Source of the DNA: Methanotrichaceae archaeon
GTDB lineage: Archaea; Halobacteriota; Methanosarcinia; Methanotrichales; Methanotrichaceae
Assembly (NCBI GenBank): GCA_963803145.1
Contig: CAWDLW010000023.1
Location: forward strand, 147,953 to 211,952
Direction of reading: 5' to 3'
DNA length: 64,000 nucleotides
The notes under the pieces: model-generated
Seen by the model: the letters and a program-made list of their open reading frames with translations, nothing else
Told to the model about the DNA's origin: nothing
Databases searched by the model: none
Shown here: piece by piece, positions 4,456-51,049 of the stretch
Numbering within the stretch: the stretch's first letter is position 1
How the letters are laid out: every line of letters starts with the position of its first letter
Program-made: the position numbers and the translations under genes

Positions 4456-4638
4456 CTTATGATAATATGCTCGAAGGGTAATATAATAATCACTAATAGT
4501 GCTGCAGGTAAACTACTCCGGCCTAAAGACCAGAGTCTCCAGCCTTGAGTTTCTATGAGACTTCTTGACTTTGGATTATTCATGCAGGCTCTTCGATTTC
4601 ACTTGTTCTGGTAAAACAAGATAATGGAGTTGAGATAA

Positions 4639-4821
4639 ATGGCTGAAGAGAGAATGAGAAAAGAAGCAAAAGGCGAGACGACTGTTGCTGAGGCAGGCCA
4701 TAAGGGCGGAGAGAGAACCGCTGAAACCCATGGCAGAGAGTTCTACAGTGATATCGGACATTAGGGCGGTCAAAAAGTAAGAGAGCTGATTGAAGCTGGC
4801 AAAGATGCCGAGCGAAGATAG
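4639..4821 (+). pseudogene. KGG-repeat general stress protein (GsiB/Em-like) with in-frame TAG
   Basis: MAEERMRKEAKGETTVAEAGHKGGERTAETHGREFYSDIGH*GGQKVRELIEAGKDAERR*; TAG at 4762-4764. Confidence 0.75.
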
Positions 4822-4837
4822 GCTAAATTGTTCGTTT

Positions 4838-4866
4838 GCCCTCCCTGGTTCAAACAGAGGAGGGCC
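4838..4866. terminator. hairpin between convergent genes
   Basis: GCCCTCC...GGAGGGC inverted repeat. Confidence 0.4.
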
Positions 4867-4901
4867 CTACTAGTGTTGTATAACAGAGGATATGCAATAG
4901 A

Positions 4902-5756: not shown

Positions 5757-6004
5757 ATCGGTCTATTATAGGGACGGCCAATCAGGCCAGGGTATTTGCT
5801 GATAGCAATTGGCTAATTACGCTATAAGTATATGACGATTTCGGTTTAAGCAATAGTCGATAATCGGGTGAAAGATATATACATAGCTTATGGCTGAATA
5901 AGAAGAAAGTTGAAGGCCATAGTAACCCAACACCCCATATTGCGCCCGCTAATTTTCATCCATATGCTGGAATATTCACTCCTCTTACGTCCGCTTATTT
6001 GCGT

Positions 6005-6556
6005 TCAGCCGATTTGGACTGCCAGCATGGAAACCGAGCCTCCATCTATGCCCTTTACAGGAAAGCTGACCTTCTCGCCTCTTTTTTTGCAACCTATGAC
6101 ATAGAGGAGCGGCAGATAGTGATCCGGTGTAGGAACAGATAGCATTGCATCTTTGCCCAAATCCTCATAGTTGATGAGCGGACCGTAATCTTCAGCCAAG
6201 AGCAATTCTCTGGCGCGTTCCGCAAGGTCTGGATCTCCTGGTGCAGGATACTCGACCTCGTAAAGATCCTGAGGAAATCCGCCGAAGTCATGAATCGTTC
6301 TAGGTGTCTGCATTGCAGTTACTGCAGTTCTTCCGATGTACCAATGTGCGGAAATGGAGAGTATTGCTTTTGGCCTGGGAATGCTGTTTCCTATAGCTTC
6401 CCAGGCTCTTGTATAATCATTTGATTGCAAGGCATCCATTGGATTTCCATGTCCCAGGAAAATGGCTGGCATAGTCTCAATCATTTTAGTAGAGGTACGT
6501 GTAACTTGTGAGTTCTCCAACGACTTCTTTTCGATATTTGCCACATATCCTGCCAT
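6005..6556 (-). pseudogene. YgiD/LigB-type (4,5-DOPA) extradiol dioxygenase with internal deletion, fused to a cupin N-terminal stub
   Basis: GHGNPM, SAHW, TIHDFGGFP, YPAPGDP and PTPDHYLPLLY are present, but the central DHG and GSGN..HN segments are absent. Confidence 0.75.
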
Positions 6557-22366: not shown

Positions 22367-25300
22367 ATGGAAATACGACAACTGATCCTGATCTCTGCAG
22401 TAGGAATTGCGCTTTTGGCTTTGGTAGCGGCTGCACCTTATGCTGATGCAAGCACTGCCAAAATCGATCCTGCCCTGGCTAAAAGGATAGACAATGGATT
22501 GAATGAGAAAATACCTATAATAATGATGCTCAAGGGCAAAAGCACACCGGATCTAACGGATATGGACGTTAAATACAGATATCGCCTCATAAACGGTATT
22601 GCAGGAGGAGCTACACCTTTAACCATAAAACGGCTCTCAGAGAGCGATTCTGTTGATGAGATCTATCTGGATAACTCTACCCATATATCCGCTCCAGCCG
22701 CAGGTGCTTCAGGAAGCGAGTCGATAAGTCCGGCAAAATATGTCAATGCTGATAAACTCTGGGCAAAGGGAATAGATGGGAAGGGCATTACAGTCGCCGT
22801 TATTGATTCTGGAATCGATAAAAACCATCCGGATCTCGAAGGCAAAGTTGTGGGCGAGAAAAACTTTGTGGATGATGAGATCTCAGCCGACGATCTTCTT
22901 GGCCACGGCACAATGGTCGCGGGCATCATCGCAGGCTCAGGGGCTGCATCAGGTGGAAAATACAAGGGAATTGCCCCTGGCGCAAATTTGCTCAACGTTA
23001 AGGTTATAGATAGCGGTGGAAACGGAAAGGTCTCTGATATAATCGCCGGAATAGAGTGGGCCATATATAACGGTGCAAATGTCCTCACCCTAAGCCTAGG
23101 CGGCCTGAACCTTGGGGAGACAAATCCGCCGATAACTATGGCCGCAGACAACGCAATGGACGAAGGCGTTGTCGTGTGTGTAGCAGCCGGCAACCGCAAT
23201 AGTACAACAGTACAGAGCATGACCGAGCCAAACACCGCCGCAGATGCACCTGTAAATATCCCCGCAGATGCTTCCACAAAAGCGAGCTCCGGATCTATAA
23301 GCGCGAGTCAGATAGATCTATCTCAAATAGGACGAAGCGCGAACAGAAATGTTCTGCTGCTTGTTGTCCCGATAGTTCTCGCTCTACCGCCAGGCCTGAT
23401 TGATTCGCCAGGAGACGGCATTAGGGTAATAACTGTAGGAGCGTCCGATTATCTGGGGCATGTGGCAAACTTCAGCGGATCCGGGCCTACTAGAGACGGC
23501 AGAACAAAACCAGATGTTGTCGGACCCGGCGTAGATGTTATATCAGCAGTTCCCCCAGGGCTAGAGAAGCCAGAGTACTTGGATATTTATTACGCCAAGG
23601 AATCAGGAACAAGTCTATCTACACCAGTTGCTGCAGGTGTTTCAGCCCTGCTGCTGCAGGCTCAAAAGAATTTGACACCTGCTGGAGTAAAAGCCGCACT
23701 TACGAATGGCGCAAAAAATCTCAATGATACTCTTGGTGAGACGTACGAAGTTTACTATCAGGGGTCCGGCCTTATCGATGCTCTGGGCTCCTATGAAAAT
23801 CTCAGCAATGATCTATGCGGGGTCGAGCCCAATAAATGGACTCCGGGCAGATGGGCCTATCTCCCTGCTGGCAAGGGAATATATGTAGGCTTGAATGCTG
23901 GAGCAGACCGGCCTCAGAAGAAGCTCTACTCTCTCGCTCCCGGCGATGAGGACTGGGCTACCCAGTTCACCTTCTTCACAAACAAAGAGAGATCCAATTT
24001 GACAACGTCCGTCTCAGGATCAATTGCCAATTGGGTGAGCATTCAGTCGCTTCCCAAAAGCATTCCTGCCAATGGACAAAGGGTCTTTGGGGCTGCGATA
24101 ACTGTGCCGAACGGCACAACGCCAGGGATATACAATGGATCCATTGATATCCTTGATGACGGAAAAATGCTAACATCAATACCGGTATCTGTAAATATCG
24201 CGGGGCCGATAGTGGTTCAGAGGGGCAGTGGATCTGCGGCCGGTTCCATAAAGGGCAGCGATTGGCGTTACTTCTATCTCGATGTGCCTTTAGGCACAAG
24301 CGACCTCAAGGCCAAACTGAGCTGGAAGAGCACCAGTACCATTGACCTATTCCTGCTTTCTCCAACGAGCGAGTACTACTCCGGCAAGCAGAATGGCAAT
24401 CTTGAGGATATAGATATCCAGGACCCACCATCGGGCCGCTGGCTGATGGCAGTCCATGGCGAAAAGCTCTCGGTTCCTGAAAATTATACCCTGAGTATGG
24501 AGCGTTCGCTTATCGATAGCTTTCCTAAGAGATGGAACGTAGGGACAATATCGCCAGGTGGTACCGCAAATGTTGAATTTACAGTGGAGAACAGAGGACC
24601 GCCTCTGAATAACCTGAGCTATCAAGGACTGATCGAAAATATAACAACTTCGGACCTGTACGGAAGTGTCGGAAACAAGAAAATATGGGAGAGCAGTCTA
24701 GACATCCAGCCTGAGACCAGACGAATATCCGCAAAGCTCAGCAAAGAGGGAAACAGCAGCGAGCTGTTGTTCTTGTTTGAGGACCCAAATGGGGAGCCAG
24801 CTGATGCTGCCCTTGGAACCGAGAACCTAGGGCCGATAGAGGCCCTGAATCCAGCTACAGGCATATGGAAGATGAGAGTTTATGGATATAGCGTGCCCAC
24901 AGTAGAACAGCAGTTCGATGTAAAGCTGACACAATATGCGGATGAGCACTGGACCTGGATAGCGACCAATGGCCCTAAGACAATAGATAGCGATTCCAGT
25001 GCTACTGTCGATGCAAGCATCGCGGTGCCGAAAAACACGTCTGTCCATAATCTTGAGGGGTATATAGAGATCTCCTCTGCCGATGCCAATAGATCAATCC
25101 AGATACCTGTTAGCGTGAATGTTGCGAGCTCTTACCTCGAAGGACTGAACTACTCAGACGTAGAGGATTCCAATAAAGATGGGTACTTCGATAATCTGGT
25201 TTTAGGATTTGGGGTAAATTCGACGACCTCAGGCAGTTACGAAGTTGAAGGGACTCTTACTGACTGCGCAGGAAATCTTATAGATCAGTTCAACCGCAGT

Positions 25301-25909
25301 TCAAGGCTTAATGGACACGGCATAATAAATGTAACTGTGAATGGAAGCGCGATCTGGAAGATAGGAAAATGCGCGCCTCTAAGAGTTGAGAACCTCCTTC
25401 TATACAGCGATCGCGGAGAGTTACTCGACAGATATAACGGCAATATAACACTGAACAGAAGCCCTAATGAATTCCAACCGCCTGCAGCATATCTCACAAG
25501 CGAATTTACGAATGAAACCGCACCCGGCAAAATAAGAATAGGGGTAGGCGCAGATGTGATAAAGCCCGGCACCTATCAGGTCAGCGGCAAGCTGGTTGAT
25601 GATAATGGAGATGAACTCGGCACAGACACAATCTCAAGCAAACTCGATGCCGGAAATACGACCCTTTATCTGGAGTTCAATCCTACAAAGTTTGCGATGA
25701 TGGGAAAAAGCTCTAGGCTGCACCTTGTAGATCTTGCATTAGCTTTGAATGGCGCAGAGCTGGAGCGTAGGGATACGGCATGGATCAGCGGACTCATGAA
25801 TCCAAATGGGCTACTGTCCGGAATCTCTGCTGTTATCAAGACTAATAACAGTACCAGCAGCACATCAGGCGTCGTGAAGAGGGAGAACGGCATGGCAGTG
25901 ATATCCTGA
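22367..25909 (+). CDS. large secreted S8 subtilisin-like protease with PPC/Ig-like C-terminal domains
   Basis: Signal peptide and propeptide; VIDSG, GHGT, AAGN, SGTSLSTP. Confidence 0.92.
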   Translation: MEIRQLILISAVGIALLALVAAAPYADASTAKIDPALAKRIDNGLNEKIPIIMMLKGKSTPDLTDMDVKYRYRLINGIAGGATPLTIKRLSESDSVDEIYLDNSTHISAPAAGASGSESISPAKYVNADKLWAKGIDGKGITVAVIDSGIDKNHPDLEGKVVGEKNFVDDEISADDLLGHGTMVAGIIAGSGAASGGKYKGIAPGANLLNVKVIDSGGNGKVSDIIAGIEWAIYNGANVLTLSLGGLNLGETNPPITMAADNAMDEGVVVCVAAGNRNSTTVQSMTEPNTAADAPVNIPADASTKASSGSISASQIDLSQIGRSANRNVLLLVVPIVLALPPGLIDSPGDGIRVITVGASDYLGHVANFSGSGPTRDGRTKPDVVGPGVDVISAVPPGLEKPEYLDIYYAKESGTSLSTPVAAGVSALLLQAQKNLTPAGVKAALTNGAKNLNDTLGETYEVYYQGSGLIDALGSYENLSNDLCGVEPNKWTPGRWAYLPAGKGIYVGLNAGADRPQKKLYSLAPGDEDWATQFTFFTNKERSNLTTSVSGSIANWVSIQSLPKSIPANGQRVFGAAITVPNGTTPGIYNGSIDILDDGKMLTSIPVSVNIAGPIVVQRGSGSAAGSIKGSDWRYFYLDVPLGTSDLKAKLSWKSTSTIDLFLLSPTSEYYSGKQNGNLEDIDIQDPPSGRWLMAVHGEKLSVPENYTLSMERSLIDSFPKRWNVGTISPGGTANVEFTVENRGPPLNNLSYQGLIENITTSDLYGSVGNKKIWESSLDIQPETRRISAKLSKEGNSSELLFLFEDPNGEPADAALGTENLGPIEALNPATGIWKMRVYGYSVPTVEQQFDVKLTQYADEHWTWIATNGPKTIDSDSSATVDASIAVPKNTSVHNLEGYIEISSADANRSIQIPVSVNVASSYLEGLNYSDVEDSNKDGYFDNLVLGFGVNSTTSGSYEVEGTLTDCAGNLIDQFNRSSRLNGHGIINVTVNGSAIWKIGKCAPLRVENLLLYSDRGELLDRYNGNITLNRSPNEFQPPAAYLTSEFTNETAPGKIRIGVGADVIKPGTYQVSGKLVDDNGDELGTDTISSKLDAGNTTLYLEFNPTKFAMMGKSSRLHLVDLALALNGAELERRDTAWISGLMNPNGLLSGISAVIKTNNSTSSTSGVVKRENGMAVIS

Positions 25910-31927: not shown

Positions 31928-34861
31928 ATGCAGGAGAAGATAATTTCTTCACTGACACCTATCTTAATGATGCGTGTTGTTGCGCATGCTCTCATCTTGT
32001 TAGCTTTGCTTATGGGTTTGCTGGCTTGGATAATCGGCATACGTAGTATTGGAGACCTTCAGGAATTCATGAATGATCTCAGTGGCATCATGCTTTCCTT
32101 TATAACAATTATTATAGTGCTGCTTATCCTCTTTTTCTTATCAATATTTTTTATTAATATGTTTAAGGAAGAGGGCATAGTGATTCTGCCTTTTGAGACT
32201 AGTTCCGTTGGAGATAATAAATACAATGGTAAAGCAATCTCTGATCTGCTCACTGCTGAACTCCATAGGATTAAGCAAATTCGAAAATATAGATATGAGC
32301 AATTACATTCATCCGGACTAGAAAAGCCAACGTATCTCAATCCTGTTCCTCCAAGGTATATATTGCACAATGGAATGACTCTAAGTTCTTTTAAGCCGGT
32401 TCCTCAAACAGAAACGCTATATTATAGCACACCTCTGGATTTCCCCGAGCTAATTCCTCAAACGGAGGCTCTTAGTTACACACTAGACAAGATAAGCTCA
32501 ATCGGTGTAGGTTCAAATGCTATCTCTATCGGTCAGCTACTTATAGCTTTCAAGAGAATGTGTCCGGGATGTAATCCAGGGCGAGTCATTACTGGTAGCA
32601 TGCAGGCATACGGATCAGTAATCCGTTTAGTTGCCTGCTTAGAACATCGTGAAATTTATACTTGGGAAGTTAATCGTAAAATCAAAGAAGAGCAGGTATC
32701 CGACTTAGTCCGAGATTTAGCTTTCAAGATCGCTTATGATCTAGCAAAGGAAGAAAATCCACAAAATAATCAAGCTAATACATGGAAAGGATTCAAATAT
32801 TATACCGAATCGCTACAAAGTTACTATCAATATACGCTTACAGGGAAGAAAAAGGCTCTAGAGAGCGCTAGAAAAAACTGCATCAACGCAGGAAACTTTG
32901 AGCCTGGCTACAAAGAGCCCCTTGAACTACTTGGTATATTAGGGTTCGCATATATTAACGAAAACAAATATGATATGGCCGAGCAGTTATTTTGTAACAT
33001 AGCATCAGTCAAACCAGACATTAGCAATTTTGGCATGGGTATTCTATATCGAAAACAGAAATATTATGATAAGGCTCTAGATCGATTTGAGAAAGTTATA
33101 CAATTGTGTCCGCAAAATGTCCAGGCTTGGACTTATAAAGGCAGTATTCTAGGTAGTCTCGGCAGGCACAAAGAGTCACTCCAGGCTTCTAACAGGGCTA
33201 TTGAATTGGATTCAGACAGCTCGAATTCAATAGCTTGGGCCAATAAAGGTAGTGCTCTGTTTAATCTTGGAAGGCATGAGGAAGCGTTACAGGCCTTTAA
33301 TAAAGCCATCGAACTAGACCCAAATAATGCATTTGCTTGGGCTAATAAAGGTGCTGCCCTATCTAACCTTGGCAAGCATGAAGAATCACTACAAGTCTTT
33401 GATAAGGCTTTCGAACTTGGTTTCAATAGTGCAATTATATGGACCAACAAAGGCAGTGCTATGTCTTATCTTGGAAGGCATGAAGAAGCATTACAGGCAT
33501 TCGATAAGGCCATCAAGCTGGATTCCAAAGATGCAATTGCCTGGATTAATAGAGGTAGTGCTCTGCTTAATTTGGGCAGATATGAAGAAGCACTACAAGC
33601 TTCTGAAAAGGCTACTGAGTTAGATCCAAATAATGCAATTGCCTGGGCAAATAGAGGTGGTGTTCTGTCTAATCTTGACAGGTATGAAGAAGCACTCCAA
33701 GCCTTTGATAAGGCAACGGAACTGGATTCCAAAGATGCAATTGCCTGGGCAAGCAAAGGTATTGCTCTGTCTAAGCTTGAGAGGCATGAAGAAGCATTGC
33801 AAGCGTTCGATAGAGCTACCGAACTGAATTCCAACGATATAATTGCGTGGATCAACAAAGGCAGTGCTTTGTTTAATTTGGGCAGGTATGAGGATGCGTT
33901 AAAAGCTTCCGAAAAGGCTACTGAGCTAGACCCGAATAATGCAATTGCCTGGGCCAACAAAAGCGGTTCTTTATATGAACTGGGTAGGTTTACAGAATCG
34001 CTACTAGCCGCTGAAAAGGCAATCGAACTGGATCCAAGCGATGCTGAAGCATGGATCGGCAAAAGCGGTGCTCTACTTAATCTGGATAGGAATGAAGAGG
34101 CATTGCAAGCTTCCGAAAAGGCCGCCAGCCTTGGTCCAAATGATATAAGGGTTTGGCGCAATAAAGGGAGTGCTCTGCTTAAATTAAGCAGATATGAAGA
34201 TGCACTAAAGGCCTTTGATAGGGCTGTTGAGCTAAATATAAATGATGCCGAAGCATGGGTCAGCAAAAGTAGTGCTTTGGGAAACCTGAAGAGGTATGAA
34301 GAAGCATTTCAGGCTTCTGAAAAGGCCATTATGCTGGATCCAAATAATGCAAAGGCTTGGGGCAATAAAGGCAATGCGTTGTTTTACCTACGCAGATATG
34401 AAGAGTCCATATTGGCTTCTGAAAGGGCCATCGAACTTAATGCAAACGATGCCAATGCATGGATCAACAAAGGCAATGCTCTGTTTAATCTTGAGAGGCG
34501 TGAAGAAGCATTACAAGCATTCGATAGGGCTACCGAACTGAATTCCAACAATATGGTTGCGTGGATCAACAAAGGTAGTATTCTGCTTACCTTTGGTAGA
34601 TATGAAGAAGCACTACAAGCTTCTGAAAAGGCCGCCGAACTAGATCCAAATAATGCAATTGCCTGGACCAATAAGGGTGATGCCTTGTATAATCTTGGCA
34701 GATATGAAGAAGCATTACAGGCCCTTGATAGAGCCACCGAATTGGACCCAAAAAATGCAAAGGCCTGGGAAAATAAAGGCTTTATTCTTAAATATCTTGG
34801 CCGTTATGTCGAAGCAAATGTAGCTTCCGCACAAGCCTGGGCATTGGGGTATATTAACTAG
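31928..34861 (+). CDS. membrane-anchored tetratricopeptide repeat protein
   Basis: Two N-terminal TM helices; 17 consecutive 34-aa TPRs (AWxNKG...GRYEEAL..F/S.KA.ELDP). Confidence 0.9.
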   Translation: MQEKIISSLTPILMMRVVAHALILLALLMGLLAWIIGIRSIGDLQEFMNDLSGIMLSFITIIIVLLILFFLSIFFINMFKEEGIVILPFETSSVGDNKYNGKAISDLLTAELHRIKQIRKYRYEQLHSSGLEKPTYLNPVPPRYILHNGMTLSSFKPVPQTETLYYSTPLDFPELIPQTEALSYTLDKISSIGVGSNAISIGQLLIAFKRMCPGCNPGRVITGSMQAYGSVIRLVACLEHREIYTWEVNRKIKEEQVSDLVRDLAFKIAYDLAKEENPQNNQANTWKGFKYYTESLQSYYQYTLTGKKKALESARKNCINAGNFEPGYKEPLELLGILGFAYINENKYDMAEQLFCNIASVKPDISNFGMGILYRKQKYYDKALDRFEKVIQLCPQNVQAWTYKGSILGSLGRHKESLQASNRAIELDSDSSNSIAWANKGSALFNLGRHEEALQAFNKAIELDPNNAFAWANKGAALSNLGKHEESLQVFDKAFELGFNSAIIWTNKGSAMSYLGRHEEALQAFDKAIKLDSKDAIAWINRGSALLNLGRYEEALQASEKATELDPNNAIAWANRGGVLSNLDRYEEALQAFDKATELDSKDAIAWASKGIALSKLERHEEALQAFDRATELNSNDIIAWINKGSALFNLGRYEDALKASEKATELDPNNAIAWANKSGSLYELGRFTESLLAAEKAIELDPSDAEAWIGKSGALLNLDRNEEALQASEKAASLGPNDIRVWRNKGSALLKLSRYEDALKAFDRAVELNINDAEAWVSKSSALGNLKRYEEAFQASEKAIMLDPNNAKAWGNKGNALFYLRRYEESILASERAIELNANDANAWINKGNALFNLERREEALQAFDRATELNSNNMVAWINKGSILLTFGRYEEALQASEKAAELDPNNAIAWTNKGDALYNLGRYEEALQALDRATELDPKNAKAWENKGFILKYLGRYVEANVASAQAWALGYIN

Positions 34862-37529: not shown

Positions 37530-37885
37530 GTTAAAATATACTTGATCTAATACTGCCGAATAACCGCAACTGTAGGATTACTTATAGATAGTAGGACGCA
37601 ATTATCAGTCGTATTTAGAGCCGGGGCAGAAAATGTCCTACCCCCAAGAATAAACTTTAGAGAAGAGTGAGACAAAAATTCAGCTTCGTTGCCTTAACCT
37701 CTTCTAGCTCATGGCTGCAATCCTTTATATAACAGAATATATATATATATATTCAAAAAAATGTAGAAAAAGTTTATTAGTACGAACTGCAATTTTCGTA
37801 ATTATAAAAGACTGATACATATCGATTCGGGCGTTAATCGCCAAGAAAACTCAAAGTATTTGCTGCATTAGCGGGAAGTACACCT

Positions 37886-39607
37886 ATGACAAATACGGAC
37901 CTCCATACTGATAATGTTGTTCCTTATGTAAACCTGCTAGAAAAATCACCCACCGGCATAAAGGGCCTGGATGAGATTACAGATGGCGGTCTTCCCAAAG
38001 GCCGTCCAACACTTGTTTGCGGGAGTGCAGGCTCGGGAAAGACGCTCCTTTCAATGCAGTTTCTTGCGCAAGGAGTATTGTTGTATGACGAGCCCGGAGT
38101 ATTCGTCGCATTCGAGGAGACACCTGATGAACTTACAAAGAATTTCAGCTCACTGGGCTTCGATCTCAGGAAGCTTCAGGAGACGAATAAGATCCTCATC
38201 GATTACATCTACATCGATTCAAGCGAGATCGAGGAGACGGGCGATTACGACCTCGAAGGGCTGTTCATCCGCTTAGGAAGCGCAATCGACTCTATCGGAG
38301 CAAAACGGGTGGTCTTAGATACAATCGAGGTCCTCTTTTCAGGATTCCGTAACACTGCTATTCTGCGCTCAGAGCTGCAAAGGCTTTTCCGGTGGCTGAA
38401 GAGCAAAGGAGTCACAGCTATTGTTACTGGCGAGAAGGGTGAGAAAACTTTAACCAGGTATGGCCTTGAAGAGTATGTCGCAGATTGTGTTATAATCCTT
38501 GATAACCGTATGGATAACCAGATCGCCACCCGAAGGATGCGTATAATCAAGTATCGCGGCTCTTCGCATGGCACAAACGAATTTCCCTTCCTGATAGAAG
38601 ATGACGGCATCTCTGTTTTGCCAATAACATCCATTGGCCTCGAACATATCGCTACCACCGAGAGGATATCATCAGGCATTGAGAGGCTCGATACAATGCT
38701 TAGCGGCCAGGGATTCTTCCGGGGAAGCAGCATCCTTCTCACTGGAACGGCAGGCACAGGCAAAAGCAGCTTTGCGGCCCATTTCGTCGATGCGGCGTGC
38801 CGCCGCGGCGAGCGCTGCATCTACTTCGCCTTCGAGGAATCGCCAAGCCAGATCTGCCGCAATATGAGTTCGATCGGCATCAATCTCACCCAATGGATGG
38901 ATGCGGGTCTACTGCATATCTTCTCAGGACGGCCGATGGCACACGGCCTGGAGATGCACCTGCTGGATATGCGCAGGCTGATCGATGAAGTCCAGCCAAA
39001 TGTTGTGGTCATCGATCCAACATCGAACCTGGTGAGCGTAGGGACCTCAAACGATGTGAGGTTCATGCTTACAAGGCTGATAGATTACCTCAAGATAATG
39101 GGTATAACATCTTTTTGCACCAGCCTGATAGAGGATGAGACAACTGGGCATACAGCCGAGAGCGTCTCATCCCTGATGGATACCTGGATATGGCTGCGTA
39201 TGTTTGATAACGGAAATGAAAGAAACCGCGGAATCACGATAGTTAAATCGAGAGGCATGGAGCACTCCAACCAGACACGCGAGTACCAAATTACTGATGA
39301 AGGCGTGAAGATACTGGACGTCTACCTCGGCCCGAAGGGAGGACTGGTTATGGGAACTGAGCGCATTGCTCAGGAGTCAAAGGAGAATGCAGATGCTATT
39401 ATGAACGATCAGGAGACCCTGAAAAGAAGAAGAGCACTTGAGAACAAGCTCAACTCCCTGAAGGCTCAGATGGATATGCTCCGCCTGGAATGCGAGACCA
39501 GCGAGGATGAGCTAAGTAAGCTCCTATCGGAGGATGAGCTTCGAAGTAAGGCCATGGCGAACGGCAGAAGAGAGATAGCCAAGCTCAGAAGGGCCGATTC
39601 ATTTTAA
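37886..39607 (+). CDS. kaiC: double-domain KaiC with C-terminal coiled coil
   Basis: Two P-loops (GSAGSGKT, GTAGTGKS), FEE pairs, KYRG/KSRGMEHSNQ, VSSLMDTW phospho-site region. Confidence 0.95.
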   Translation: MTNTDLHTDNVVPYVNLLEKSPTGIKGLDEITDGGLPKGRPTLVCGSAGSGKTLLSMQFLAQGVLLYDEPGVFVAFEETPDELTKNFSSLGFDLRKLQETNKILIDYIYIDSSEIEETGDYDLEGLFIRLGSAIDSIGAKRVVLDTIEVLFSGFRNTAILRSELQRLFRWLKSKGVTAIVTGEKGEKTLTRYGLEEYVADCVIILDNRMDNQIATRRMRIIKYRGSSHGTNEFPFLIEDDGISVLPITSIGLEHIATTERISSGIERLDTMLSGQGFFRGSSILLTGTAGTGKSSFAAHFVDAACRRGERCIYFAFEESPSQICRNMSSIGINLTQWMDAGLLHIFSGRPMAHGLEMHLLDMRRLIDEVQPNVVVIDPTSNLVSVGTSNDVRFMLTRLIDYLKIMGITSFCTSLIEDETTGHTAESVSSLMDTWIWLRMFDNGNERNRGITIVKSRGMEHSNQTREYQITDEGVKILDVYLGPKGGLVMGTERIAQESKENADAIMNDQETLKRRRALENKLNSLKAQMDMLRLECETSEDELSKLLSEDELRSKAMANGRREIAKLRRADSF

Positions 39608-39635
39608 AATTGAGTGGATATAATGGAACAATCAG

Positions 39636-39962
39636 ATGAAAGCGCTGACAGTAGAAATGGAGCCTTCCGACTATCTGCAGGACGATGAGATCTATATCCT
39701 GCGGCTCTATGTGGCAGGCCAGACCAGGAAGAGCCTGGCAGCCTTCGCCAACCTCAAGAGGATATGTGAGGAGCATCTGAAGGGCAAGTACAGAATCGAG
39801 GTCGTCGATCTTCTGGAGCATCCTCAGCTCGCGAAGGGCGACCAGATTCTGGCTATTCCTACGCTTGTCCGGAGGCTTCCTCCGCCTGTCAGAAAGATCA
39901 TAGGCGATCTCTCGAACACCGAGAGAGTGCTGATAGGTCTCGACTTGCGCCCTGCGAAATAA
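39636..39962 (+). CDS. kaiB: KaiB (copy 1)
   Basis: [40 protein letters not shown]. Confidence 0.95.
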
Positions 39963-39984
39963 GGGTGGTTCAAGATGATATGCA

Positions 39985-40323
39985 ATGGTTGAATCAAATA
40001 GATCAATAGAAAAGGTTGAAAAAGCCCTGAAGAGCAAAGGCACCGATGTATTTGTTTTGCATCTCTACGTAGCGAATATGAATTTCAAGTCTGTTCAGGC
40101 CATCAAGAACATCAACGATATATGTGAGGAGAACATCCCTGGGCGGTACCAGCTCGATATAATCGATATCTGCCAGCAGCCGATCCTCGCCAGAGAAAAC
40201 CAGATCATAGCGGCACCAACCCTAATTAAAGAGACTCCTCTGCCTCTTAGAAGGCTTGTAGGAAATATGTCCGATACAGAGCGTGTGCTGACAGGTCTTG
40301 GCCTGCACTCCAAAACAAACTGA
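39985..40323 (+). CDS. kaiB: KaiB-like protein (copy 2)
   Basis: FVLHLYVA, QIIAAPTLIKETPLPLRRLVGNMS. Confidence 0.9.
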   Translation: MVESNRSIEKVEKALKSKGTDVFVLHLYVANMNFKSVQAIKNINDICEENIPGRYQLDIIDICQQPILARENQIIAAPTLIKETPLPLRRLVGNMSDTERVLTGLGLHSKTN

Positions 40324-40328
40324 ATACC

Positions 40329-40721
40329 GTGGTACGAATTGGTGATGCGATGGGGAATGACGATAATAGAGAGAACGGTGATTCGATAGAGACTGATGCT
40401 TATGAAAGCTTCGAGAAAGCTCTGGAGAGAATGGGCACTGAGAAGTACGTCCTGCGTCTCTATGTTGCCGGTATGGGTCCAATGTCCATCCAGGCAATTG
40501 AGAATATCAAAAAGATCTGCGAGGAGAATATGCCTGGGCGATATCAGCTCGATATAATCGATATCTATCAGCAGCCTATCTTCGCCAGGGAAGGTCAGAT
40601 TGTAGCAGCACCAACCCTCATCAAGGAGCTTCCGCCACCCATATCGAAGCTGGTTGGGAGCATGTCTGACAAAAAGCGTGTCCTCGTTGGCTTGGATCTG
40701 CATATCGGAAAACAAGAATGA
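40329..40721 (+). CDS. kaiB: KaiB-like protein (copy 3)
   Basis: [33 protein letters not shown]; start may be ATG 40350. Confidence 0.9.
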   Translation: MVRIGDAMGNDDNRENGDSIETDAYESFEKALERMGTEKYVLRLYVAGMGPMSIQAIENIKKICEENMPGRYQLDIIDIYQQPIFAREGQIVAAPTLIKELPPPISKLVGSMSDKKRVLVGLDLHIGKQE

Positions 40722-40776
40722 TTTATATCCAGGCAGGAGATAAAACTCAAGAAACCCGTTAAGATGAGGCAGCATT

Positions 40777-43764
40777 ATGGCTAAATCTAACGAAGAGCTT
40801 GTAGCTGAGAACGAAGAGCTGCGTAGAAATTTAGATGAATCTCAAGAGCTTCTGCGAGCCATAACAGGTGGTGAGGTAGATGCTCTGGTCGTCTCTGGAT
40901 CGCAAGGTGAGCAGGTTTTCACTCTCGAAGGGGCAGATCGCGCCTACCGTATTCTCATTGAGGCCATGAACGATGGCGCAGTCACCATGACCTCAGACGG
41001 AACTATTCTCTACTGCAACCGCCATTTTGCAGATATGACGAAGTCGCCTCTGGAAAAAGTGATAGGCTCATCCATCTACCGTTTCATCCCACAGTCTGAT
41101 CAGGCATCATTCAGAGTTCTTCAGCAGGGCCTCGGCAGGGGTGAACTGACTCTTCAAGCTGAAGATGAAAGCATAATGCCTGTTTATATCTCCATTAATT
41201 CCATCCAGCTTTCAGAATCCCAGGAAGCTTTTTGCGTTGTTTTCACCGACCTGACAGAGCAGAAGCGAAAAGAAGAGATTGTTGCTGCAGAGAAGCTGGC
41301 TCGTTCCATCATCGAGCAGACGGCTGAGGCAGTCATAGTCTGCGATGAGAGAGGAAAGGTCATCCGTTTCAGCAATGCTGTACTCAGGATCTTGGGCTGT
41401 GATCCATCGCTCCAGAGTTTTGAGGACTTATTCGACCTGCGGATCCCGGTCGGCAAGAAGCTATATCCTATCTCGTCGGCTCTGGGAGGTGATGTTCTAC
41501 TGCAGGTCGAGGCAAGTCTTAAGCGAAGTGACGGCATGCTGTTTCACTTGCTCCTGAACGCCGGACCTCTGAAGAGTACGAATGGCAGGATCATAGGCTG
41601 CGTGATCACCCTTACGGACATCACCGAGCGTAAGCGGATGGAGGATGCCCTACAGGATAAGCAGGAAGAACTCGAAGTACAGGCCGAGGAACTTGTTGCC
41701 CAGAACGAAGAGCTGCGCGTCAATAACGACGACCTCTCAGAGACGACCAGAATGCTGCAAGAGAGCGAAGCGCGCTTTCGAGCAACCTTTGAGCAGGCAG
41801 CAGTCGGCATTGAAATGCTGAATCTTGATGGCCAATTCTTGCGAGGCAATGGAAGGCTGGGTGAACTACTGGGCTATAGCCAAAAGGAGCTACAGTGTCT
41901 CAACTTCGCCGATATCACCTACCCTGATGATCTTGTCCGAGAGCTGCCGTTGCTGGAAGACCTACTGGCCAGGCGAATCGGTCACTATACTATTGAGAAG
42001 CGTTACCTGCGCAAGGATGGCCAGGGCGTATGGGTGCGCGTTACATCATCGCTTGCTAATGTTAAAGAGCCATATCGGATCTCGGTTATCGAAGATATCA
42101 CAGAGCGCAAGCAAGCCGAGGAGGCGCTAGAGAGGCTACTGAAAGAAGTCGAGGCACAGCGTGCCAGGTTGCAGGCGATCCTCGACGCCCTGCCTGTTGG
42201 TGTAACGATCGCCGATGCTACAGGCAGCATCCTTGTGAACAACGATGCATTACGCAAGATTTGGGGCGGTAAGGCGCCGTTATCTAAGTGTGTTGAGGAA
42301 TATGCGGAATATAAGGGCTGGTGGGCAGATACTGGAAGGCCTATCAAACCTGAGGATTGGGGGCTGGCACGTGCCATTAAAAATAGCGAGACAAGCGTGG
42401 GCGAGGTCATAGATATACAGCGTTTCGATGGCACACGCGGCACAATACTCAGCTCGGCTGCCCCCGTCAAAGACGCCAGCGGGACCATCATCGGCGCCGT
42501 AGTCATCCAGCAGGACATCACAGAGCGCAAGCAGATGGAAGAGGAGCTGCAAAAAGCCCGTGATGAGCTGGAACAGAGGGTCACTGAGAGGACTGCAGAT
42601 CTGACAAAAGCCAAGGAAGCCGCCGAGGCTGCAGTCGAGGCCAAAGCTGCGTTCCTTGCGAATATGAGCCATGAGCTTAGGACACCCCTGAATGCAGTGA
42701 TTGGTTTCTCCAGCCTTCTCCTTGCTGATAATCTCACACCGGATCAGAAGGAGGACATTGAGAGAATCAGGAAGGGTGGTGAAGCTCTCCTATCAATCAT
42801 AAGCGATATCCTTGAATTTTCGAGAGCTGAAAAGGAGAAAGTAACACTAGAGCTTCAGCCTCTCAGCCTCAAGCGCTGCATCGAAGAATCTCTTGATATG
42901 GTTGCAGTGCAGGCCATCGATAAGGGCCTGAACCTGGCTTATACCGTCGCTTACGGCACACCGGATACAATCATTGGTGATCCTGGAATGCTTCGTCAGA
43001 TTTTGGCTAATTTGCTTTCCAACGCTGTCAAGTTTACCGATAAGGGGGATATATCAATATCCATTTCCTCCAAAATCATCGAGGGTAATGAGCGCCAGAT
43101 AACTTTTGTAGTCAAGGATACGGGCATCGGCATGCCCCATGATAAGATGGACAGGCTCTTCAAGCCCTTTACACAGCTTGAGTACACCCTAAGCCGTAAA
43201 CGTGATGGCGCAGGACTCGGACTCGCCATATCCAAGAAGCTCGTAGAACTTATGGGTGGAGAGATCTGGGCCAAAAGTGAGGAAGGCAGAGGTTCGACCT
43301 TCTGGTTCACTATTCCCGTAGAGACTCTCCCAGGAAAGCAATTGGACTTAGAGGAGAAGGATATAGCTGAGTATGAGAACCTCTCGAGCCAAAAGCCTCT
43401 GGCAATTCTTGTAGCCGAAGATAACCCTTCAAACCAGAAGGTACTCGTCGAGATGCTGAAACGCCTAGGCTATAGGCCCGATGCCGTGGCAGATGGCGTT
43501 GAGGTTCTGCAGGCCCTCCAAATCCGGTCATACGACCTGATCTTCATGGATATCAAGATGCCTGAGATGGATGGCCTTACCGCTGCCAGGGAGATACGAA
43601 AGCTCTGGCCTGAAAATGGTCCGAAGGTAGTGGCCATCACAGCTTTCGCAATGGATGGCGATCAAGAGAAGTGTCTTGAAGCAGGAATGGATGGATATAT
43701 CGCAAAGCCTGTGAAAGTGGATGATCTCGCAACGCTACTACGCAATATTAACCACACAGAATAA
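40777..43764 (+). CDS. multi-PAS hybrid histidine kinase/response regulator
   Basis: Four PAS-like units ending in D(I/L)TE(R/Q)K, SHELRTPL, NAVKFT, DTGIG, GAGLGL, receiver AEDN/FMDIKMP/KP. Confidence 0.95.
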   Translation: MAKSNEELVAENEELRRNLDESQELLRAITGGEVDALVVSGSQGEQVFTLEGADRAYRILIEAMNDGAVTMTSDGTILYCNRHFADMTKSPLEKVIGSSIYRFIPQSDQASFRVLQQGLGRGELTLQAEDESIMPVYISINSIQLSESQEAFCVVFTDLTEQKRKEEIVAAEKLARSIIEQTAEAVIVCDERGKVIRFSNAVLRILGCDPSLQSFEDLFDLRIPVGKKLYPISSALGGDVLLQVEASLKRSDGMLFHLLLNAGPLKSTNGRIIGCVITLTDITERKRMEDALQDKQEELEVQAEELVAQNEELRVNNDDLSETTRMLQESEARFRATFEQAAVGIEMLNLDGQFLRGNGRLGELLGYSQKELQCLNFADITYPDDLVRELPLLEDLLARRIGHYTIEKRYLRKDGQGVWVRVTSSLANVKEPYRISVIEDITERKQAEEALERLLKEVEAQRARLQAILDALPVGVTIADATGSILVNNDALRKIWGGKAPLSKCVEEYAEYKGWWADTGRPIKPEDWGLARAIKNSETSVGEVIDIQRFDGTRGTILSSAAPVKDASGTIIGAVVIQQDITERKQMEEELQKARDELEQRVTERTADLTKAKEAAEAAVEAKAAFLANMSHELRTPLNAVIGFSSLLLADNLTPDQKEDIERIRKGGEALLSIISDILEFSRAEKEKVTLELQPLSLKRCIEESLDMVAVQAIDKGLNLAYTVAYGTPDTIIGDPGMLRQILANLLSNAVKFTDKGDISISISSKIIEGNERQITFVVKDTGIGMPHDKMDRLFKPFTQLEYTLSRKRDGAGLGLAISKKLVELMGGEIWAKSEEGRGSTFWFTIPVETLPGKQLDLEEKDIAEYENLSSQKPLAILVAEDNPSNQKVLVEMLKRLGYRPDAVADGVEVLQALQIRSYDLIFMDIKMPEMDGLTAAREIRKLWPENGPKVVAITAFAMDGDQEKCLEAGMDGYIAKPVKVDDLATLLRNINHTE

Positions 43765-43818
43765 AATTTATAAGATAAAATTAGCATCATCCTTTTGGAT
43801 GCTCCTTGAATCCTATAT

Positions 43819-43932
43819 GCTGAGAAAGCCAAGAAGCATTCAAGCGATGCATTCTATGCGCTCGATGATCCTCTAGAGGAGGCTGTGTTTTCGGTGCTGG
43901 TGGAGATTACAAAGCTAGTACTAGCTGAATAA
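43819..43932 (+). pseudogene. second fragment of the MGRSFES/PolB2-associated-like small protein
   Basis: AEKAKKHSSDAFYALDDPLEEAVFSVLVEITK aligns with 2790-2880 (-); no start codon. Confidence 0.7.
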
Positions 43933-43999
43933 ACTTAGCTGAAGGGTAACTTATAGATAATAAAACATAATAAATCTTCCAGTTAGTGCCGGTGTAGAA

Positions 44000-46900
44000 A
44001 TGGCGATTGATAACCTCTCTCAAAAGATCTCTGAGCTTTCACAGCGATTAGAGGAGCTCCAGGCAAAGTGCGTGAACAATCCGGAATATGCGCCCGAAGT
44101 CCTAGCCGATGCATTAGAGAGTCTTCAGGCCAGCCTTGAGGAGCTATCTGCGGCAGATGAGGAGCTTATGCAGCAGAACGATGAACTAATGCAGATTCAG
44201 TTGGCGTTGCAAAAGAGTGCAGAAAAGTTCAGACTAGTTGCTGATTTCACCTATGATTGGGAAACTTGGATAGACCCTAAGGGGAACTATGTTTATGTTT
44301 CGCCTTCCTGCGAGCGAATAACCGGATATTATGCCGAAGAATTCATAGAGAATCACTCTCTTTCCATAGACATAATACATCCAGATGATAAGGAAGCTTT
44401 TAAACAGCATCAAAATGTCCATTTCGATGAACAGACTGATAGCGCGCAAATCGATTATCGTATTATAACAACGAAAGGAGAGATCCGTTGGATCAGTCAT
44501 ATCTGCCAACCGGTATTCGGAAGGAATGGGGAATGGCTTGGAAGTAGGGCAAGTAACAGGGACATCACTGAGCGCAAGCAGGCAGAGGAGGCGTTACATG
44601 CTAACGAGAAACGGCTGCAGGCAGTTCTCGCTGGCATGACCGATGCCTACTATTTCTATGATCGTGAGTGGCGGTTCGTCGATATCAACCCACGCGCGGT
44701 GGAATACTTCGGTCGACCGCGGGAGGAGCTACTAGGGCGCAATGTCTGGGAACTCTATCCTCATACAGTAGGCGGCAAACCCTGGACTGAATACCATCGT
44801 GCTATGGCTGAGGGTGTGCCAGTCCATTTTGAGACACAGTCGGGCGTCAGTCCACGCTTTTTCGAAGTACATGCCTATCCGGAGCCGGAAGGATTGGCAG
44901 TCTACCTGCGGGACATCACCGAGCGCAAGCGAATGGAGGGAGCTTTACAGGAAAAGCAGGAAGAGCTTGAGGTACAGGCCGAGGAACTTGAAGCCCAGAA
45001 CGAAGAGCTGCGCATCAATAATGAAGACCTAGCAGAGACAACCAAATTGCTGCAAGAGAGCGAAGCGCGCTTTAGAGCAACCTATGAGCAGGCAGCAGTC
45101 GGCATTGAAATGTTGAACCTCGATGGCCGATTCTTGCGAGGCAACGCAATGCTAAGTGAGATCCTGGGCTACAGCCAAAAGGAGCTACAGTGTCTCAACT
45201 TCGCCGATATCACCTATCCTGATGATCTGGTCCGAGAGCTGCCGTTGCTGGAAGACCTACTGGCCAGACAAATCGGCCACTACACTATTGAGAAGCGTTA
45301 CCTTCGTAAAGATGGCCAGGATGTATGGGTGCGCGTTACCTCATCGCTTGCTAACGTTCAAGAGCCCTACCGGATCTCGATTATCGAAGACATCACTGAG
45401 CGCAAGAAGGTCGAGGAAGCGTTGCGTACGAGCGACGCACGGCTGAATAAGGCCATAGAAACCGTCCGAGAAGGCGTGATCATCGCAACTGAGGCGGAAG
45501 ATGTCATTTATTGGAATCCAGCGGCACAGGCGTTGCATGGCTTTACCAGGCCCCGTGAGGGTATCGAGCCATTGAGTGATACTCCGAAGACGTTCGATTT
45601 GATTTATCCTGATACTGGCTTAGTGCTGCCGCTGGAGGATTGGCCTATGAAGCGCATTAAGAGGGGCGAAAAAGTGAGCAACTTAGAACTTCTCCTGCGC
45701 CGCCCAGACCAGGGCTGGGTAAAATACGTCTCCTATTCCGGCACGATGGTAGAAACGTCGAACGCTGAACACCTGATCTTTCTGACTGTATATGACATAA
45801 CTGAACGCAAGCAGATGGAAGAGGGGCTACGAAAGTCTAGGGATGAGCTTGAGCAAAGGGTCCAGGAGAGGACCTCTGAGCTATCCGATGCAAAAGAGAA
45901 CCTCGAAGTGATCAACGAAGAGCTTCAAGTGGAGATCTCAGAGCATGAGAAGACAGAGAAAGATCTGTTAAACGCCAAAGAAGCAGCAGAGGCAGCAGTT
46001 GAGGCTAAGGCAGCTTTTCTGGCTAACATGTCACATGAACTCAGAACGCCCCTGAACGCTGTTTTGGGCTTCTCCAGTCTTCTCATGGAGGATAATCTCA
46101 CAGAAGACCAGAAAGAATATGTCGAGAGAATCAGGATTGGCGGCGAATCTCTTCTGGCCCTAATCGGCGATGTCCTGGAGTTTTCCAGGGCAGAAAAGGA
46201 GAGAATAAAGCTGGAACATCAGCCTCTCAGCCTCAAGGTTTCCATTGAGGAATCGCTGGACATGGTGGCAGTGCAGGCTGATAAGAAGGGCCTAAAACTT
46301 GCTTATACCATCAACTACGGAACCCCAGATACTATCATCGGTGATCCTGGAAGGCTTCGACAGATTCTAGTCAATCTGCTTTCCAATGCTGTCAAGTTCA
46401 CAGATGAAGGAGAAATATCAGTATCTGTCTCCTCCAAAGTCATTGAAGGCAACAAGCGCCGGATAACATTTGCAGTCAGTGATACAGGCATAGGTATGCC
46501 CCTGGATAAGATGGACAGGCTCTTCCAGCCATTTACACAGCTTGAGTACACCCTGAGCCGCAAGCGTGATGGCGCTGGACTTGGACTCGCCATTTGCAAG
46601 GAGCTTGTCGAGCTTATGGGCGGTGAGATTTGGGCTGAAAGCGAGGAAGGCAAGGGCTCTACATTCAGATTCACCATTCAGGCAGAGACTATTTCAGGAA
46701 AGCAATTAGATTTAGGTGAGAAGAATAAAGCTGCCATATACGAGAACCTCTCAGCTAAAAAGCCCTTGAGCATCTTGGTGGCTGAAGACAACCCTTCAAA
46801 CCAGAAAGTGCTTGTCGAGATGCTGAAACGTCTGGGCTATAGGGCTGATGCGGTTGCTGATGGGTGTGAGGTTCTGCAAGCCCTTCAAATCCGGCCATAC

Positions 46901-47149
46901 GATCTGATATTCATGGATATACAGATGCCAGAATTGGATGGAATCACGGCCACAAAGGAGATACGAAAGATATGGCCTGAAAACGGCCCTAAAGTAGTGG
47001 CCATCACTGCCTTTGCCATGGATGGGGATCAGGAGAAATGTCTTGAAGCTGGCATGGATGGTTACATCGCAAAGCCTGTGAAAGTGGATGATCTTGCGAC
47101 GCTACTACGCAATATTACCCCCCCCCCAAGAATAAAATTTAGAAGATAA
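44000..47149 (+). CDS. multi-PAS hybrid histidine kinase/response regulator
   Basis: N-terminal coiled coil, four PAS units, SHELRTPL, HATPase, receiver FMDIQMP. Confidence 0.95.
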   Translation: MAIDNLSQKISELSQRLEELQAKCVNNPEYAPEVLADALESLQASLEELSAADEELMQQNDELMQIQLALQKSAEKFRLVADFTYDWETWIDPKGNYVYVSPSCERITGYYAEEFIENHSLSIDIIHPDDKEAFKQHQNVHFDEQTDSAQIDYRIITTKGEIRWISHICQPVFGRNGEWLGSRASNRDITERKQAEEALHANEKRLQAVLAGMTDAYYFYDREWRFVDINPRAVEYFGRPREELLGRNVWELYPHTVGGKPWTEYHRAMAEGVPVHFETQSGVSPRFFEVHAYPEPEGLAVYLRDITERKRMEGALQEKQEELEVQAEELEAQNEELRINNEDLAETTKLLQESEARFRATYEQAAVGIEMLNLDGRFLRGNAMLSEILGYSQKELQCLNFADITYPDDLVRELPLLEDLLARQIGHYTIEKRYLRKDGQDVWVRVTSSLANVQEPYRISIIEDITERKKVEEALRTSDARLNKAIETVREGVIIATEAEDVIYWNPAAQALHGFTRPREGIEPLSDTPKTFDLIYPDTGLVLPLEDWPMKRIKRGEKVSNLELLLRRPDQGWVKYVSYSGTMVETSNAEHLIFLTVYDITERKQMEEGLRKSRDELEQRVQERTSELSDAKENLEVINEELQVEISEHEKTEKDLLNAKEAAEAAVEAKAAFLANMSHELRTPLNAVLGFSSLLMEDNLTEDQKEYVERIRIGGESLLALIGDVLEFSRAEKERIKLEHQPLSLKVSIEESLDMVAVQADKKGLKLAYTINYGTPDTIIGDPGRLRQILVNLLSNAVKFTDEGEISVSVSSKVIEGNKRRITFAVSDTGIGMPLDKMDRLFQPFTQLEYTLSRKRDGAGLGLAICKELVELMGGEIWAESEEGKGSTFRFTIQAETISGKQLDLGEKNKAAIYENLSAKKPLSILVAEDNPSNQKVLVEMLKRLGYRADAVADGCEVLQALQIRPYDLIFMDIQMPELDGITATKEIRKIWPENGPKVVAITAFAMDGDQEKCLEAGMDGYIAKPVKVDDLATLLRNITPPPRIKFRR

Positions 47150-47354: not shown

Positions 47355-47537
47355 ATGGCTGATTGCGATCTTTGTACCCGCGCTAGACCAACGCTCTTTC
47401 CCATAAAGGCCCCCGTCCATAGAATGGCCTGGCCTGAGGGAGCATACAAGGGCGTCTGCGATATATGTCTCGGAAACCTGGAAAAGGCCTGGCAGCAGCG
47501 CTTCGGTCCAAAGCCTGAGGCTGAGGCAAAGAAGTAA
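47355..47537 (+). CDS. fpoO: short FpoO-like protein (F420H2 dehydrogenase subunit O family)
   Basis: DCDLC...PT..P...PEG.(Y/W)KG.C..CL pattern; GGAG upstream; hairpin plus T-rich tract downstream. Confidence 0.75.
   Translation: MADCDLCTRARPTLFPIKAPVHRMAWPEGAYKGVCDICLGNLEKAWQQRFGPKPEAEAKK

Positions 47538-49334: not shown

Positions 49335-51049
<1,715 letters not shown>

Follow-up and report, generated by a model that had tools for sequence, protein, structure and literature searches.

The window analysed here, a stretch of 64,000 nucleotides on contig CAWDLW010000023.1 (assembly GCA_963803145.1) of a Methanotrichaceae archaeon, carries a kai locus in which one kaiC gene is followed by three kaiB genes and two genes for hybrid histidine kinases, HK1 and HK2:

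37886–39607, forward strand: kaiC, KaiC2 type; 573 amino acids, two RecA/KaiC domains, the serine pair S428/S429, and about 80 additional residues at the C-terminus
39636–39962, forward strand: kaiB1, an alpha-clade KaiB in first position; 108 amino acids
39985–40323, forward strand: kaiB2, a beta-clade KaiB; 112 amino acids
40329–40721, forward strand: kaiB3, a beta-clade KaiB with an N-terminal extension; 130 amino acids, GTG start
40777–43764, forward strand: HK1, a soluble hybrid histidine kinase; 995 amino acids
44000–47149, forward strand: HK2, a tandem paralogue of HK1; 1049 amino acids

According to the open reading frame (ORF) calls, successive genes are separated by 28, 22, 5, 55, and 235 bp, which agrees with the six-gene layout that an initial annotation of the window had described (gaps of 5–55 bp, then one of 235 bp). 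That annotation had also assigned the DNA to an archaeon and found no kaiA in the window. The first point is confirmed by genes for S19e, eIF-6, and prefoldin within the window and for McrA in the genome, and the host is a non-phototrophic, Mcr-encoding archaeon. The second extends from the window to the whole 4.13-Mb genome (99.3 per cent complete, 6.8 per cent contamination), in which a search for kaiA (PF07688) returned no match and the Synechococcus control was positive. Its central claim, a KaiA-less KaiBC locus of the Rhodobacter type (KaiC2) joined to a PAS hybrid kinase in an archaeon, thus stands.

The KaiC protein scores 712 bits against NF006799 (cut-off 408) and contains two PF06745 domains; against the cyanobacterial model TIGR02655 it reaches 357 bits, below the cut-off of 546. 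A motif check confirmed two features read from the sequence earlier, namely two intact ATPase domains (Walker A motifs at residues 46–53 and 287–294, catalytic EE pairs at 77–78 and 317–318) and a pair of serines in place of ST (S428/S429, within VSSLMD at 427–432). The best match among solved structures is R. sphaeroides KaiC (8DBA; 600 bits, aligned over residues 19–553); S. elongatus KaiC reaches 327 bits. In the alignment, the SS pair falls opposite LSSLMD in 8DBA and LEELMD in the S413E/S414E mimic 8FWI, and the C-terminal extension can be followed along the 8DBA coiled-coil tail as far as residue 553. According to Pitsawong et al. (PMC10076222), KaiC2 proteins carry two serines and have a tail that is longer by about 50 residues. 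Because 8DBA is the best match and both the tail and the SS pair align with it, the protein can be assigned by its sequence to KaiC2.

The locus is one of three in its genome. A genome-wide search returned nine KaiB domains and three double-domain KaiCs. Besides the locus in the window (cassette A), two cassettes on contig C8 (B and C) have the gene order kaiC, kaiB, kaiB, kaiB, hybrid PAS kinase. The KaiC copies of the three cassettes are 88–92 per cent identical, and KaiBs are 78–86 per cent identical to those at the same position in another cassette, against 36–67 per cent between different positions; the orthology of KaiB2 and KaiB3 is maintained across all three. DNA identity is about 87 per cent from kaiC to kaiB3, and between A and B it also covers the first ~870 bp of the kinase gene, whereas the upstream regions of the cassettes are dissimilar. 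All 12 Kai genes are intact, and their dN/dS values of 0.11–0.48, at dS of about 0.25–0.64, indicate that all are under purifying selection. In a tree of 79 KaiC sequences, rooted on a divergent archaeal KaiC, the three copies cluster (support 0.99) with a same-genus genome as sister (1.00), which makes the triplication a young event on the scale of the genus.

The KaiC paralogues and the kinases of the three cassettes also differ from one another. Across the three KaiC paralogues, 34 per cent of the C-terminal tail is variable, compared with 13 per cent of CII and 6 per cent of CI, so that residues 491–573 (39356–39604 in the window), the part that pairs hexamers in Rhodobacter, are also the most divergent part of the protein. 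The sensor arrays of the kinases, in turn, comprise about four PAS domains in 995 amino acids, about six in 1228, and about two in 844. The first 175 codons of HK1 (40777–41645) differ from cassette B by a dS of only 0.086. This value lies far below the dS of 0.60 between the kaiC genes of A and B and suggests that the two kinase genes later recombined or underwent gene conversion. Cassette B is preceded, on the reverse strand, by a gene for a 798-residue hybrid PAS kinase with two REC domains (C8, L116, 9580–11973), which lacks the N-terminal module described below.

The three KaiBs of the window all exceed the PF07689 cut-off of 27 bits (KaiB1, 96; KaiB2, 85; KaiB3, 80), and each matches KaiB-RS (8fwj_M) best (109, 90, and 98 bits, respectively). 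To place them, we reconstructed a tree of 130 KaiB domains, which separates into two clades, alpha and beta (support of the split, 1.0). All 55 second-position KaiBs, six from this genome among them, fall in the beta clade, together with six lone KaiBs of Floridaenema/Phormidium; the alpha clade consists of the first-position KaiBs and the remaining lone ones. Alpha is better conserved than beta (mean column identity of 60 versus 48 per cent). KaiB-RS, the one KaiB of this system that has been studied biochemically, shows the alpha consensus in an alignment and is thus alpha-like.

KaiB1 lies on the alpha side of the tree and scores 177.6 with the alpha hidden Markov model (HMM) against 139.5 with the beta HMM. 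KaiB2 belongs to the beta clade (beta HMM, 153.4; alpha HMM, 111.8), as does KaiB3 by both tree and HMM, and the N-terminal extension of KaiB3 carries the beta motif FExAL. Both are placed in an archaeal beta sub-clade (0.954) and are the products of a lineage-specific beta duplication. KaiB2 is the more derived copy: it reads LYVANMNFKS against the beta consensus LYVaGmTprS, lacks the near-invariant Gly of the beta loop, and has dN/dS values of 0.23–0.48 between cassettes. AF2 models KaiB3 (pLDDT 78.9) with the thioredoxin-like order beta-alpha-beta-alpha-beta-beta-alpha, and the structures that match this fold best are 8fwj_M and the fold-switch-stabilized KaiBs 5jyt and 5jwr. KaiB-beta is conserved and would be an accessory KaiB.

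HK1 and HK2 each combine three to four PAS domains with HisKA, HATPase_c, and REC domains (Pfam); HK1 has about four PAS domains, HisKA at residues 623–686, HATPase_c at 734–849, and REC at 877–988. Both retain the H-box SHELRTP, the G-box DTGIGM, and the FMDIxMP motif with the acceptor Asp of REC, and hydropathy analysis detected transmembrane segments in neither (maximum KD(19) of HK1, 1.43). Neither kinase matched KaiB in Pfam, and no KaiB domain is present in a model of HK1 residues 1–175, which shows a helix, a hairpin, a helix, and a PAS domain; a SasA-like system was rejected on these grounds. What precedes the first PAS domain of HK1 is a different element:

40777–40974, forward strand: Kai-linked N-terminal module of HK1 (residues 1–66); long helix, beta-hairpin, short helix

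Its first ~62 residues are common to the three Kai-linked kinases of the genome, with the consensus EAEETLRAIRxGEVDALVVxxxxGxxVYTLxGADxPYR. In the AF2 model of residues 1–175 (pLDDT 91 overall; 68–85 over residues 21–60, which include the hairpin and the helix after it), helices at 5–30 and 53–63 enclose strands at 36–41 and 44–49, and the PAS domain follows. Residues 1–56 match no Pfam family, and a fold search with the model retrieved just generic PAS/LOV structures, the helix-hairpin part being without a match. Of the 37 ORFs in its own genome that encode a kinase core, three have the module, and these are exactly the Kai-linked kinases.

HK2 lacks this module, as profile searches of the loci and of the genome agree. 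It is 61.5 per cent identical to HK1 over about 880 amino acids, starts with a different N-terminus, and shares two blocks of DNA (511 and 1194 bp) with the HK1 gene at 79–89 per cent identity. The most plausible reading of HK2 is a partial copy of HK1 that arose locally and that probably lacks a direct coupling to the Kai proteins. Cassettes B and C have no counterpart of HK2. The initial annotation had linked KaiC to two kinases; that link is not supported, given an HK2 without the module and two sister cassettes without a second kinase.

How general this arrangement is can be judged from a survey in which one genome per species was scanned with the KaiC as query, yielding 80 loci. Four are archaeal (three Methanosarcinales metagenome-assembled genomes [MAGs] at 68–69 per cent identity and one Euryarchaeota MAG at 58 per cent), and the others come from many bacterial phyla (54–69 per cent, for the best-matching segment). 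The kaiB genes were counted in the 70 loci whose sequence continues for at least 1500 bp beyond kaiC; two tandem kaiB genes are the commonest form (47 loci), followed by one (22 loci) and none (one locus), and three were found in no locus. In 57 of the 80 loci (i-E < 1e-8), a profile of the module matched the start of the gene that comes next after the last kaiB, and in those loci it matched no other kinase. The module gene, 6–371 bp after the last kaiB, is present in 47 of 47 loci with both alpha and beta, in 14 of 17 with alpha only, and in none of six with beta only. The three misses among the alpha-only loci are betaproteobacterial loci with weaker, split matches, and two further loci are too short for judging. 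The beta-only loci (L025, L030, L039, L042, L050, and L051, with cyanobacterial KaiC2 from Floridaenema/Phormidium) have a lone beta KaiB and no downstream module gene, and they are the sole beta-only form seen in the survey. Thirteen downstream proteins were missed by the HisKA-type model: three of these are HisKA_3, two HisKA_2, two HWE, and one HisKA, and the remaining five contain PAS/GAF domains alone in the ORF as called.

The association also holds among closer relatives. The 61 related genomes contain 16 strong matches to the module (E ≤ 5e-23), located in seven genomes; 15 of them lie within about 350 bp of a KaiB, and the sixteenth follows a KaiB remnant. KaiB itself is patchy in the archaeal family, being present in 9 of 36 other genomes (E ≤ 0.001). 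Two related genomes have triple kaiB arrays, composed of a weak alpha, an alpha, and a beta, and because their make-up differs from that in the window, extra KaiBs have arisen more than once in the family.

Three further observations concern other loci. In one relative (G012, with 14 KaiB matches in its genome), a contig (C10, L101, 294–9311) carries a kaiC split into two ORFs, three kaiB genes (weak alpha, alpha, beta), and a module kinase gene, and continues with a second alpha-beta pair and a module protein that have no kaiC of their own. A second, divergent type of kaiC-kaiB-hybrid kinase locus occurs in G012, G001, and G017 (L106, L110 [4106–6141], and L114); its KaiC scores 418–451 bits against the profile of the KaiC studied here, its KaiB is clearly in neither clade, and its kinase lacks the module. 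The KaiC of the Euryarchaeota MAG (L095) groups with deltaproteobacterial sequences (0.73), outside the main archaeal clade; here, another archaeon would have acquired the cassette independently. The deep nodes of the KaiC tree, which bear on the donor of the cassette and on any transfer between bacteria and archaea, have support of 0.27–0.69.

From these data, we propose that the locus represents, in an expanded archaeal version, a signalling cassette of wide distribution with four parts, KaiC2, KaiB-alpha, KaiB-beta, and a PAS kinase with the module (probability roughly 0.6). KaiB1 supplies the alpha, KaiB2 and KaiB3 the beta, and HK1 the module kinase; the locus departs from the four-part form in its second beta and in the added, module-less HK2. 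By homology to the Rhodobacter KaiBC hourglass, KaiC would autophosphorylate S428/S429 without KaiA, with the tail pairing two hexamers, and thioredoxin-like KaiB would bind the CI ring in its ADP state and bring about dephosphorylation as ATP/ADP falls. This course follows the reports that Rhodobacter KaiC autophosphorylates without KaiA and that KaiB stimulates its dephosphorylation at low ATP/ADP, and an energy-state timer is, by homology to KaiBC-RS, a reasonable inference (PMC10076222). The coupling of HK1 would run through its first PAS domain and the helix-hairpin module before it, which would dock on KaiB-alpha or KaiC. We propose this coupling from gene linkage and the precedent of KidA (PMC9478674), and the pattern of presence and absence across loci favours alpha or KaiC as the partner of the module. 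The signal would then pass from His to Asp and onward by phosphorelay. The cassette encodes no response regulator, and a relay from REC is possible because the genome has a stand-alone Hpt ORF of 136 codons elsewhere. In this lineage, KaiB-beta has been duplicated as KaiB2 and KaiB3 and the whole kaiC-kaiB1-kaiB2-kaiB3 unit triplicated, and the kinase beside each copy has a PAS array of its own.

Several points weigh against this proposal. The coiled coil that had been predicted at the C-terminus of KaiC agrees with the long tail aligned to 8DBA, but the heptad signal of the tail itself is modest (hydrophobic residues at 0.50 of a/d positions versus 0.33 overall), so that the argument for a coiled coil comes from homology. 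KaiB3 is predicted in the KaiC-bound, thioredoxin-like fold, but AF2 often yields the fold-switched state for KaiBs, and the model is therefore no proof that beta binds KaiC. Correlations of distance matrices over 37 loci are higher for beta and the module (r = 0.65; partial, 0.31) than for alpha and the module (r = 0.47; partial, 0.16), a test that is only suggestive, since common ancestry of the loci and the limited variation of alpha both confound it. The bin has a contamination of 6.8 per cent; the 45 per cent G+C of both contigs and the clustering of the KaiCs speak against a mix-up. Finally, Synechocystis KaiC2-KaiB2 and Legionella KaiBC are reported to be clock-independent or linked to stress (PMC11372060; 10.1101/2022.01.26.477890), and 'timer' is therefore possibly the wrong word.

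This last point leads to the alternative that the cassette does not keep time at all and forms a hub for stress or energy state, in which KaiC reports ATP/ADP or redox and the kinase relays the signal without delay. A sediment-dwelling Mcr archaeon with no obvious light cue would suit such a role, as would the reported involvement of Legionella KaiBC and Pseudomonas KaiC in stress resistance, the persistence of rhythms in Synechocystis KaiC2B2 mutants (10.1101/2022.01.26.477890; PMC11372060), and the proposal that archaeal KaiC-like ATPases are general signalling hubs (cited in PMC5847659). However, the closest homologue studied is reported as an hourglass in vitro (PMC10076222), and both the double phosphosites and the tail are conserved here. 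We consider a hub without delay possible but on the whole unlikely, noting that it uses the same parts as the four-part cassette with a timer and that sequence data cannot separate the two.

The kinase could also stand at the input, with the PAS array sensing redox or ligands and the module acting on KaiB or KaiC, so that the timer is reset. KidA is reported to work in this way, stabilizing the active fold of KaiB through its PAS domains (PMC9478674), and a PAS kinase of R. sphaeroides has been suggested to be an oxygen sensor that passes redox signals to the clock (PMC10931921); the chief difference between the three cassettes, moreover, lies in their PAS arrays. Against this, the module is kept on kinases of four classes. 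No response regulator in the cassette shows the direction of signalling, and a role in both directions is compatible with the data. A kinase at the input seems improbable to us.

A comparably doubtful account regards the additional beta copy and the additional cassettes as redundant duplicates of recent origin without distinct function. The duplications are indeed lineage-specific, and KaiB2, with its dN/dS of up to 0.48 and the loss of the near-invariant beta Gly, is the most relaxed of the set. Against this account, all 12 genes are intact with dN/dS below 0.5 at the dS range given above, KaiB2 and KaiB3 have been held as orthologues in three cassettes, and the kinases have diverged in sensor content.

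The initial annotation had favoured yet another role for the extra KaiBs, as free adaptors that bridge KaiC to HK1 and HK2 in the manner in which the KaiB-like domain of SasA acts in cis. Beta always lies between alpha and the kinase gene, its distance matrix correlates with that of the module better than the alpha matrix does, and the KaiB3 model is in a fold competent for binding. CikA binds KaiB in its fold-switched state. The same is reported for KidA (PMC9478674). The survey nevertheless argues the other way, because a module kinase lies behind a lone alpha in 14 of 17 loci and behind a lone beta in none of six, and the kinase link therefore does not require beta. HK2 lacks the module, and cassettes B and C have two betas yet one kinase each, so that betas and kinases do not vary together in number. 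We have accordingly not adopted the adaptor role as our explanation, and we think it unlikely.

Far less probable than any of these is a set of three parallel KaiC2 timers in a dark-living methane archaeon, each with its own PAS kinase and a mixture of alpha, beta, and beta-prime KaiBs, in which divergent tails would keep the dodecamers apart and competition or sequestration among the KaiBs would supply delayed feedback; if true, it would amount to a multi-channel, possibly self-sustained, post-translational timer in Archaea with the KaiBs replacing the KaiA feedback of cyanobacteria.

The non-coding parts of the locus contain candidate promoters:

37530–37885, forward strand: kaiC upstream intergenic region, candidate promoter; TTTATATA at 37724, a (TA)n run, and TTATAAAA at about 37802
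43765–43999, forward strand: HK1-HK2 spacer of 235 bp; an A+T-rich, TATA-like stretch, CTTATAGATAATAAAA, 40–52 bp before the HK2 start

In the upstream region, a putative kaiC promoter, TTTATATA and the (TA)n run of about eight units (37724–37752, 130–160 bp 5' of kaiC) resemble an archaeal TATA box. Conservation of this region between the three cassettes extends over no more than ~30–60 bp, and cassettes B and C do not share the TATA-like element. The spacer may hold a promoter of HK2's own. An 11-mer, ACTTATAGATA, is present on the forward strand in both regions, at 37580–37590 (306 bp before kaiC) and 43948–43958 (52 bp before HK2), and has eight copies in the 4.13-Mb genome. It may be a shared promoter element or a product of chance, and the motif call was dropped for too few data.

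Just 3' of HK2, a 60-codon ORF (47355–47537, forward strand) with two Cys-x-x-Cys pairs is a candidate for a small zinc-ribbon protein. More distant neighbours are genes for a subtilase of 1180 amino acids (22367–25909), a TPR protein of 977 amino acids (31928–34861), and a luciferase-like (F420-type) oxidoreductase (50084–51049); the annotation of the genes in the window revealed no link between these three and the Kai locus.

The locus bears on whether Archaea keep time with Kai proteins, and it could serve as a test bed for the beta KaiB and the kinase module. Full KaiB-KaiC sets are rare in published archaeal censuses; KaiB has been recorded in only four archaeal genera (Schmelling et al., PMC5520375). 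The present genome offers three KaiCs, nine KaiBs, and three matched kinases, which are intact and soluble and hence can be expressed and tested, and its natural beta duplication and three paralogous sets are ready variants for testing specificity. At the level of the survey, non-cyanobacterial KaiC2 systems usually carry a second, unstudied clade of KaiB. Their kinase starts with a dedicated module, and this could supply the output or input link that has been missing. A literature search that left out subscription journals and supplements returned no description of a second KaiB clade or tandem kaiB genes, and none of the module.

The initial annotation was not aware of a characterization of this architecture, which in that form is not novel. 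The triple kaiB is absent from all 70 related loci in which kaiB genes were counted, but the succession kaiC-kaiB-PAS/HK is in print (PMC4794148; PMC3164672): Rhodopseudomonas palustris and R. sphaeroides have a kaiC-kaiB-PAS/HK operon with the same order, one apparent transcription unit, and no kaiA (PMC4794148), and a kaiC-kaiB-HK gene context was drawn as early as 2011 (PMC3164672). Those descriptions show a single kaiB and mention no kinase module, whereas the archaeal locus has extra betas, a second kinase, and a triplicated cassette. The novelty in the window thus lies in the alpha-beta-beta set of KaiBs, three cassettes per genome, and the module-less HK2. It is not a new kind of system, and the function given to it here is drawn by homology.

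The closest counterpart is the KaiBC hourglass of Rhodobacter (Cereibacter) sphaeroides (8DBA, 8DB3, 8FWI, 8FWJ), which, as reported in PMC10076222, shares the KaiC2 type, the SS pair, the C-terminal extension, the lack of KaiA, and a KaiB of the alpha kind. That organism is a phototroph with one reported KaiB, whereas the present host is an Mcr archaeon with one alpha and two betas and three cassettes. The four-gene module is widespread in bacteria, and a timing function is known for it solely from that purple bacterium. The resemblance to the KaiABC/SasA/CikA/KidA system of Synechococcus elongatus is looser and consists of a double-domain KaiC, a KaiB family that switches folds, and coupling to a histidine kinase. 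In the archaeon, by contrast, there is no KaiA, KaiC falls below the TIGR02655 cut-off, and the kinases have no SasA-type thioredoxin domain; because KaiA is absent, nothing here is evidence of a self-sustained oscillator. PAS domains of KidA are reported to bind fold-switched KaiB, and PAS genes to lie often beside kaiBC (PMC9478674). Archaeal KaiC-like ATPases, for which a role in signalling hubs has been proposed (Makarova et al. 2017, cited in PMC5847659), resemble the locus in their archaeal host and in the linkage of a KaiC-family protein to signal-transduction genes. Most archaeal KaiC-like proteins, however, have a single domain and no accompanying KaiB, whereas this genome encodes a full-length, bacterial-type KaiC2 together with its KaiBs.

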